From Escherichia coli (GTDB taxonomy: Bacteria; Pseudomonadota; Gammaproteobacteria; Enterobacterales; Enterobacteriaceae), in assembly GCF_003334765.1 (NCBI RefSeq), contig NZ_QOWT01000130.1: DNA of 360 nucleotides. The stretch is one strand, 5' to 3'. A program made the translations under genes and the position numbers. Positions 1-285 of this stretch are shown piece after piece (position 1 is the stretch's first letter; each line of letters starts with the position of its first letter). The notes below the pieces were generated by a model, which saw nothing but the letters and a program-made list of their open reading frames with translations, was not told where the DNA came from and did no database searches.

Positions 1-76
<76 letters not shown>

Positions 77-82
77 TAATTC

Positions 83-98
83 ACCACAGCGATGTGGT
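83..98 (+). other. Small hairpin 7 nt downstream of the copy-1 CCA: 6-bp stem with a GCGA (GNRA-type) tetraloop
   Basis: Seen in sequence: accaca (83-88) is the reverse complement of tgtggt (93-98); loop gcga (89-92). No U tract follows, so it is not an intrinsic terminator. Any role in processing is inference. Confidence 0.4.
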
Positions 99-150
99 AA
101 CTTCGGTGAGATTGTGAAAGTTTGCACTCATCGGGGAAGGGTGAGAACCT

Positions 151-251: not shown

Positions 252-285
252 TCTCAAGCATTACCTCAAAATTTGAATTACCCCT

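Follow-up and report, generated by a model that had tools for sequence, protein, structure and literature searches.

What does a small hairpin do between two tRNA genes, a few nucleotides past the mature end of the first one? The question is raised by the tyrT–tyrV locus of Escherichia coli, of which we analyzed a stretch of 360 nucleotides (nt) from contig NZ_QOWT01000130.1, further called the window; it has 100% identity over 360 bases to the E. coli K-12 locus (J53, ME8067, and MG1655 derivatives). The hairpin, HP1, lies in the 209-nt tyrT–tyrV spacer (77–285) and consists of ACCACA (83–88), the loop GCGA (89–92), and UGUGGU (93–98), with six Watson–Crick pairs. Sequence comparison shows that HP1 is real and conserved across enteric bacteria. 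As to its role, we lean, with considerable doubt, towards HP1 being a stem-loop at the boundary of a tRNA-linked repeat (TLR) in internal position, which would anchor RNase E and position it beside the CCA end of the tRNA.

Conservation of the hairpin

Species-representative genomes were scanned for a tRNA-Tyr 3′ end with the RtT 5′ motif behind it, which gave 120 loci from Enterobacterales. All loci in which two tRNA-Tyr genes are separated by 100 nt or more (n = 32) were taken as an unselected set, the structure being ignored in the choice. At these tandem loci, the first 34 nt past the CCA had a mean folding energy of −6.2 kcal/mol, and 81% were at −5 kcal/mol or better; for trailers without a downstream tRNA-Tyr gene, the mean over the same length was −1.8 kcal/mol, with 15% reaching this level. 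In the MAFFT alignment of the 32 loci, the HP1 columns were 82.8% paired, compared to 18–44% with slid 3′ partners; over all pair counts made, the HP1 value was 83–87%.

The covariation analysis proposed as a check in an earlier note on this DNA came out in favor of the stem. In the 32 unselected loci, all six HP1 pairs carry compensatory two-sided changes, with 29 double-change cells in total, and the HP1 covariation score of 0.457 (0.230 in shuffles) was reached by none of 500 shuffles. RNAalifold, applied to 29 of the 32 sequences from the CCA to the RtT core, agrees, yielding the HP1 stem as its sole prediction. The shuffle control ignores relatedness of the loci, while the slid-partner control keeps it.

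The alternative HP1 arms include ACUACA/UGUAGU, ACUGCG/CGCAGU, ACCAUA/UAUGGU, ACCUUA/UAAGGU, and AUCUGA/UCAGGU. The loop is a tetraloop in 30 of the 37 distinct hairpin-bearing trailers and a GNRA loop in 19; the non-GNRA loops found in orthologues include GCAG, GCAC, AAAA, AGCA, and UUGA. Some HP1 pairs are G-U or U-G, which on the opposite strand correspond to A-C mismatches, and therefore the structure is selected in the plus-strand RNA. We also considered a DNA palindrome serving as a protein-binding site and rejected it, as the pairing is kept but the sequence is not, and the G-U pairs turn into A-C on the other strand.

Folding of the hairpin

The 6-bp stem with a GCGA loop that had been described downstream of tyrT can be read directly off the sequence, the stem starting at the seventh base past the CCA. 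The loop fits the GNRA pattern and is closed by the Watson–Crick pair A88–U93. Folded alone, HP1 has the energy of −7.0 kcal/mol (z = −4.2), and none of 200 shuffles was as stable. The outcome that the earlier note named as a refutation, a stem outcompeted by other structures, did not materialize: HP1 is kept in the minimum-energy folds of 70–110, 77–130, 60–130, the spacer 77–285, and the 379-nt tyrT–tyrV precursor, in the latter with pair probabilities of 0.92–0.98. It is lost solely in the arbitrary fragment 77–119, where another fold wins.

Perfect 6-bp hairpins with a loop of 3–8 nt were present in 40% of dinucleotide-shuffled windows, and those with a loop of exactly 4 nt, in 9%; with a GNRA loop, the mean number was 0.005 per shuffled window. 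As 6-bp hairpins are common in shuffles, a single sequence can do no more than suggest HP1.

Structure of the spacer

The features of the window, all on the plus strand, are the following.

1–76, 3′ part of tyrT (tRNA-Tyr, anticodon GUA); Rfam tRNA match at 1–73 and RefSeq annotation in strain J53 (locus L001, 1492–1576)
58–76, copy 1 of the 19-nt direct repeat AATCCTTCCCCCACCACCA, at the tRNA 3′ end; read off the sequence
77–82, single-stranded U/A-rich linker UAAUUC; published RNase E cut U77/A78, predicted unpaired probability 0.89 in the precursor
83–98, hairpin HP1, with arms 83–88 and 93–98 and the loop GCGA at 89–92; folding and covariation
101–136, second stem-loop, HP2; minimum-energy fold of the spacer and pair count in the orthologue alignment
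120–251, RtT RNA, or TLR core; Rfam RF00391 and RefSeq annotation as an RtT small RNA (sRNA)
233–251, copy 2 of the direct repeat AATCCTTCCCCCACCACCA, at the TLR 3′ end; read off the sequence
252–285, 5′ leader of tyrV; sequence and annotation
286–360, 5′ part of tyrV (tRNA-Tyr), truncated at the window 3′ end; Rfam tRNA match at 286–360 and annotation

The tyrT gene is truncated at the 5′ end of the window, and its encoded CCA is at 74–76. TLRs end in 18–19 nt repeating the 3′ end of the upstream tRNA, and this is their defining feature (PMC8144298). The 175-nt unit at 77–251 has it: the unit lies directly 3′ of a tRNA gene and ends with a copy of that tRNA's 3′ end (58–76 = 233–251). The RtT core matches RF00391 with 132.9 bits (gathering score 45, E = 1.5e-29). 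HP1 is outside the RF00391 model, which begins at position 120 and has its first 14 positions unpaired; therefore, HP1 is a part of the TLR unit, but not of the Rfam family as defined. Beyond tyrV, the K-12 operon has three further RtT copies, followed by narI.

With the RtT/TLR family (RF00391; Egan & Landy 1978; Rudd 1999), HP1 shares its place inside the 175-nt unit, which is bounded by the 19-nt repeat and gained or lost as a block; however, HP1 and HP2 are not in the family as described, and stems of this kind are missing from the distal RtT copies of the operon. The function of TLRs in tRNA operons is not known, and the original rtT claim has been retracted (PMC8144298). 3′ETS-leuZ is likewise a conserved non-tRNA part of a tRNA operon freed by RNase E (PMC8144298), but it base-pairs with sRNAs, and HP1 is not known to have such a partner.

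HP2 begins 2 nt past HP1. In the K-12 fold, its outer stem joins 101–110 with 127–136, and the inner stem, 113–117 with 122–126. The covarying core of HP2 (104–110 with 127–133) begins 5 nt past HP1; in Enterobacterales, it is 82.4% paired and shows double-sided changes in six of the seven pairs. The first Gs of the RtT 5′ strand also belong to the 3′ strand of HP2, and this stem-loop is in a region that is unpaired in the Rfam RtT model or lies outside it. Two E. coli strains, NCTC9966 and F5656C1, differ in the inner stem of HP2 (positions 116 and/or 123).

Over 22 nt, the tyrT T-arm with the 3′ strand of the acceptor stem (47–68) has 86% complementarity to the 5′ strand of RtT (133–154); in J53 coordinates, this is L001 1547–1568 and 1633–1654. 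When the 379-nt precursor is folded thermodynamically, a long tyrT–RtT helix displaces the tyrT cloverleaf, and the pair probability of the acceptor stem is 0.0. Given this complementarity, the TLR 5′ strand has two alternative partners, its own 3′ end and the upstream tRNA.

The linker and the RNase E site

Mohanty & Kushner (PMC2241853, Table 3), citing Li & Deutscher 2002, list the tyrT sequence CCAU/AAUUC, with the slash marking the cut, among the RNase E sites of high efficiency. The cut position taken from this literature, U77/A78, leaves 1 nt behind the CCA, and the stem base A83 comes 5 nt further downstream. In the 37 distinct hairpin-bearing trailers, the linker has 6 nt in 22 cases and 3–6 nt in 34, and is composed of 60% U, 20% A, and 2% G. 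Both its U/A-richness and the offset of the stem are kept despite unrelated stem sequences, in two operons, tyrT–tyrV and thrU–tyrU–glyT–thrT. E. coli O157:H7 Z1835 (L125) carries A78G at +1 of the published cut, with HP1 unchanged.

Stem-loops next to RNase E cuts are known from other RNAs. In MicL, RNase E cuts 5 nt from stem-loop A, and the cut-to-stem distance in RNAI is 4 nt (bioRxiv 10.1101/341578). The tyrT site has the same layout, with a single-stranded cut, a stem-loop 4–5 nt 3′ of it, and a second stem-loop close behind, and its distance equals the 5 nt of MicL. On the other hand, the dependence on the stem-loop was shown by mutagenesis for MicL and RNAI, whereas for tyrT we infer it. 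Besides, the tyrT site is flanked by a tRNA and a repeat element instead of being part of the 3′ untranslated region (UTR) of an mRNA or of an antisense RNA, and its cut is bounded 5′ by the tRNA acceptor stem and the CCA.

A parallel in stable RNA is the 3′ cleavage of argX by RNase E, which requires an adjacent downstream structured element acting via an RNase E groove far from the active site; a simple stem-loop can substitute for this element (PMC9841416). As in tyrT, the cuts in the argX-hisR, glyVXY, and metT operons (Clarke et al. 2023) are one to a few nucleotides past the CCA, in a U/A-rich linker; in those operons, the cut is stimulated by the neighbouring structure, for which a simple stem-loop can stand in. 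However, the neighbour there is the next tRNA, while the next tRNA in tyrT–tyrV is 209 nt off, and HP1 is the nearest structure; the substrates that study took apart did not include tyrT–tyrV.

Occurrence of the hairpin among tRNA-Tyr genes

We classed the tRNA-Tyr genes of the fetched loci by their tRNA neighbours as found by ARAGORN, counting a hairpin if the first 34 nt past the CCA folded at −5 kcal/mol or better.

First gene, 100 nt or more before the next tRNA (n = 34), hairpin in 76%
Middle gene, as in tyrU–TLR–glyT (n = 16), hairpin in 88%
Solitary tRNA-Tyr gene (n = 35), hairpin in 6%
Last tRNA-Tyr gene (n = 63), hairpin in 2%

The segments from the CCA to the RtT core differ in the same way.

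Hairpin present, 40 of 48 internal units and 3 of 101 terminal units
C/G ratio, 1.04 in internal units (n = 48) and 2.6 in terminal units (n = 101)
Minimum free energy, −14.6 kcal/mol in internal units and −2.7 kcal/mol in terminal units
Fraction paired, 56% in internal units and 23% in terminal units

Thus, the occurrence of HP1 follows the internal versus terminal position. Some TLRs with similar cores have opposite linkers depending on position; such pairs were found within locus L097, within L051, and between L067 and L008. Internal tRNA-Tyr trailers without a stable hairpin do exist, in Pantoea sp. IMH (L019) and in two Yersinia loci (L057 and L071).

Window positions 60–140 are present in 1,921 of 5,426 complete E. 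coli genomes. In strains GPEC1042 and ST2747, the tyrT–tyrV spacer at the same purU–narI locus is comprised of 34 nt equal to window positions 252–285, the entire 175-nt unit being missing. Such 34-nt spacers are seen at L014 10684–10717, L122 796–829, and L123 741–774, and these strains have a single distal RtT. HP1 is an accessory spacer element with no requirement for making the tRNA, since it occurs almost only in spacers leading to another tRNA gene.

The tyrU–glyT spacer of E. coli VE-F10 (L124 570–590) contains CCA-AUUUCG-GCCA(CGCGA)UGGC, a weaker hairpin that likewise follows a 6-nt linker and resembles ACCACA(GCGA)UGUGGU in sequence; this 116-nt spacer may be a degenerate TLR. Shorter spacers are found in other genomes as well. 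In Escherichia sp. E1V33 and Pseudocitrobacter vendiensis they have 138 nt, and in Salmonella diarizonae 139 nt, with HP1 kept (L066, L074, and L110); these lengths fit a 71-nt deletion within the RtT core between the copies of GAAGGGTGAG at 136–145 and 207–216 (209 − 71 = 138). Enterobacter pulveris DSM 19144 (L121) has a 70-nt spacer between two tRNA-Tyr genes, in which the hairpin core ACCACAGCGAUGUGGU is intact and extended by three pairs (−13.1 kcal/mol); a second hairpin, GAUAAGCC-GCU-GGCUUAUC, is also present, and the RtT core is absent. In Pantoea L019, the internal and terminal trailers are near-copies of each other, as though the tRNA had been copied in one piece with its TLR of terminal type.

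Composition of the linkers and termination

Rho loads on approximately 60–80 nt of C-rich, G-poor RNA with little structure. The segment past tyrT (77–132), with 11 C, 13 G, and the folding energy of −14.8 kcal/mol, does not have the properties of a rut site. By contrast, the linkers after tyrV and the distal repeats (L001 1871–1929, 2049–2107, and 2227–2285) have 19 C and 6–7 G in 59 nt and are nearly unstructured (−1.1 to −5.4 kcal/mol), in agreement with what is expected of one. The GC skew over 60 nt in K-12 is +0.24 past tyrT versus −0.69, −0.62, and −0.54 past tyrV and the distal repeats. Judging by composition, these linkers, and also the 101 terminal trailers of other genera with the C/G ratio of 2.6, look like candidate Rho loading sites. 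The tyrT terminator is reportedly a classic Rho-dependent one located in these repeats (Kupper et al. 1978; Rossi et al. 1981), in line with the earlier note, and the open, C-rich, G-poor segments past tyrV would fit this.

In agreement with the earlier note, HP1 itself is not a Rho-independent terminator: the scan of the window yielded no terminator-like sites, and the HP1 stem is trailed by AACUUCGG, with no U tract. It resembles such terminators in being a short stem-loop 3′ of a stable-RNA gene, but differs in the missing U tract and in having three G-C pairs out of six; moreover, transcription must reach tyrV.

Possible roles of the hairpin

In the mechanism we tentatively propose, HP1 and HP2, arranged in tandem at the 5′ edge of the internal TLR, would fold the stretch between the CCA and the RtT core, so that the 6-nt U/A-rich linker alone is left single-stranded by the CCA. 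RNase E would cut in this linker, 1 nt past the CCA and 5 nt upstream of HP1. We infer that the stem directs or stimulates this cut, serving as an anchor for RNase E and a ruler fixing the cut position; the last nucleotide would then be trimmed by 3′ exonucleases. The folding might be limited to internal spacers in order to deny Rho loading before the downstream tRNA gene.

A number of observations weigh against the RNase E part of this mechanism. By analogy with argX, one would expect a hairpin serving RNase E after first or solitary tRNAs, and this expectation was rejected, as the hairpin follows 6% of the 35 solitary genes. The trailer of tyrV, which encodes the identical tRNA, has no hairpin (UCACUUUCAAAAG...), and neither do the distal-repeat junctions; in about 65% of E. 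coli genomes, this tRNA matures although HP1 is missing. When HP1 is deleted in silico, the unpaired probability of the linker is 0.95, as compared to the native 0.89. The RNase E site has A, and not U or C, at +2. Further, the nearest neighbours of TLR cores belong to the same class in 81–86% of cases, which means that the internal/terminal contrast largely reflects an old split into two paralogous lineages, with the Fisher p (1e-24) inflated as a consequence. Finally, Rho avoidance would cover all five position classes, including solitary tRNAs, and positioning of RNase E does not. The stem could be required at most where the trailer is otherwise folded. We also considered HP1 as an insulator keeping the linker single-stranded, and dropped this as the main role, given the weak support: the linker was sequestered in one of four in-silico mutants (the one with the changed 3′ arm), and not in the deletion.

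HP1 might serve only to keep Rho away. In this scenario, the main rival of the above mechanism but a somewhat unlikely one, HP1 and the second stem keep 57 nt past the CCA folded and not C-rich, the adjacency to RNase E is incidental, and terminal units are left open as rut sites. This agrees with the hairpin counts in internal and terminal junctions (40/48 versus 3/101), with the difference of the CCA-to-core segments in both composition and structure (C/G 1.04 versus 2.6; −14.6 versus −2.7 kcal/mol; 56% versus 23% paired), with the base counts in K-12 (C11/G13 past tyrT versus C19/G6–7 past tyrV and the distal repeats; GC skew +0.24 versus −0.54 to −0.69), and with the position-dependent linkers of similar cores at L097, L051, and L067/L008. 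Hairpins automatically raise the G content, though, so composition and structure are not independent evidence; much of the internal/terminal contrast is by descent; the unstructured internal units of Pantoea L019 and Yersinia L057 and L071 do not fit; and the terminator is only presumably Rho-dependent. Above all, Rho avoidance leaves unexplained the fixed offset of 5–7 nt between the stem and the CCA and the U/A-rich linker. Hence, it explains the distribution of the hairpin better than positioning of RNase E does, but not the fixed offset, and the two are not mutually exclusive. A further reading regards TLRs as modular Rho-termination cassettes, in which the linker of about 57 nt would be open, C-rich, G-poor, and Rho-loading in terminal units and closed by HP1 and the second stem in internal ones, with the 6-nt gap for RNase E kept and HP1 acting as the switch; we consider this reading rather unlikely, if only slightly more so than Rho avoidance by itself.

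The remaining explanations appear weaker. Stem-loops near the 5′ end protect E. coli RNAs, as in the ompA 5′ UTR, and HP1, being 5 nt from the new 5′-monophosphate and confined to internal spacers, where the downstream RNA is worth protecting, could hinder 5′-end-dependent attack or scanning by RNase E and shield the spacer RNA (RtT) and the tyrV precursor. We regard such a cap as improbable, as five unpaired nucleotides at a 5′-monophosphate end are generally enough for the RNase E 5′ sensor, tRNAs are intrinsically stable, the tyrV leader is trimmed by RNase P anyway, so that being cut there does no harm, and no function is known for the RNAs of tRNA-operon TLRs (PMC8144298). Still less probable is the barrier suggested by the earlier note, in which HP1 stops 3′-to-5′ exonucleases, so that tyrT could not mature at its 3′ end unless cut by an endonuclease. 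That the 3′ route of tyrT is endonucleolytic stands, given the RNase E site (PMC2241853); the stem is stable and conserved, and stem-loops do impede 3′ exonucleases (PMC9841416). That HP1 forces or defines this route does not stand. The RtT core, of about 130 nt and much more stable, lies downstream together with tyrV, so an endonuclease is needed with or without HP1, which contributes about −7 of the −66 kcal/mol of the spacer. HP1 is missing from terminal trailers, the sole ones reachable from a free 3′ end. The identical tRNA is processed from hairpin-less trailers, that is, from the tyrV trailer, in the strains with 34-nt spacers, and, for tRNA-Tyr genes across Enterobacterales, after nearly all solitary and last genes (hairpin in 6% and 2%); therefore, HP1 is neither necessary for tRNA-Tyr maturation nor the reason for the endonucleolytic route. 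The least likely option is that HP1 has no function of its own, being a relic of one paralogous TLR lineage conserved through shared descent. The unit can be missing with no obvious ill effect (it is present in 35% of E. coli genomes), the TLR cores fall into clusters according to class, and the shuffle control is blind to relatedness. However, the stems are wholly different between families, and yet the pairing, the offset, and the tetraloop size are kept, with the 29 double-change cells spread over six pairs, and the control keeping relatedness gave 18–44% paired versus 83%.

Known and new features of the locus

The tyrT locus is among the most studied tRNA loci; the locus itself was known before, as were its RtT element and its RNase E cut. 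For the covarying hairpin, its tandem partner, the fixed offset, and the restriction to internal spacers, we found no description in the literature searched, the primary tyrT papers excepted; neither are they in the Rfam RtT model. If HP1 positions RNase E, the rule of cutting 5 nt from a stem-loop would extend from sRNA biogenesis to tRNA 3′ maturation. If it marks a closed Rho loading site, this would be the first proposed function of TLRs and would explain how the long untranslated spacers of tRNA operons escape Rho. The hairpin-less alleles provide built-in natural controls. Either way, the practical consequence is modest, as most E. coli strains can do without the element.

Other features of the window

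ARAGORN called no tRNAs in the window, because both tRNA genes are truncated. Sub-threshold Rfam matches over the region (sX4, with 19 bits against 70, a snoRNA, and a plastid UTR) were dismissed as chance. We also set aside a coding role for an open reading frame (ORF) on the minus strand at 81–257, which sits in the spacer of a tRNA operon and is probably not a gene. This ORF of 58 codons (58 aa), starting with TTG, is antisense to the hairpin and RtT and is the sole ORF spanning the hairpin.

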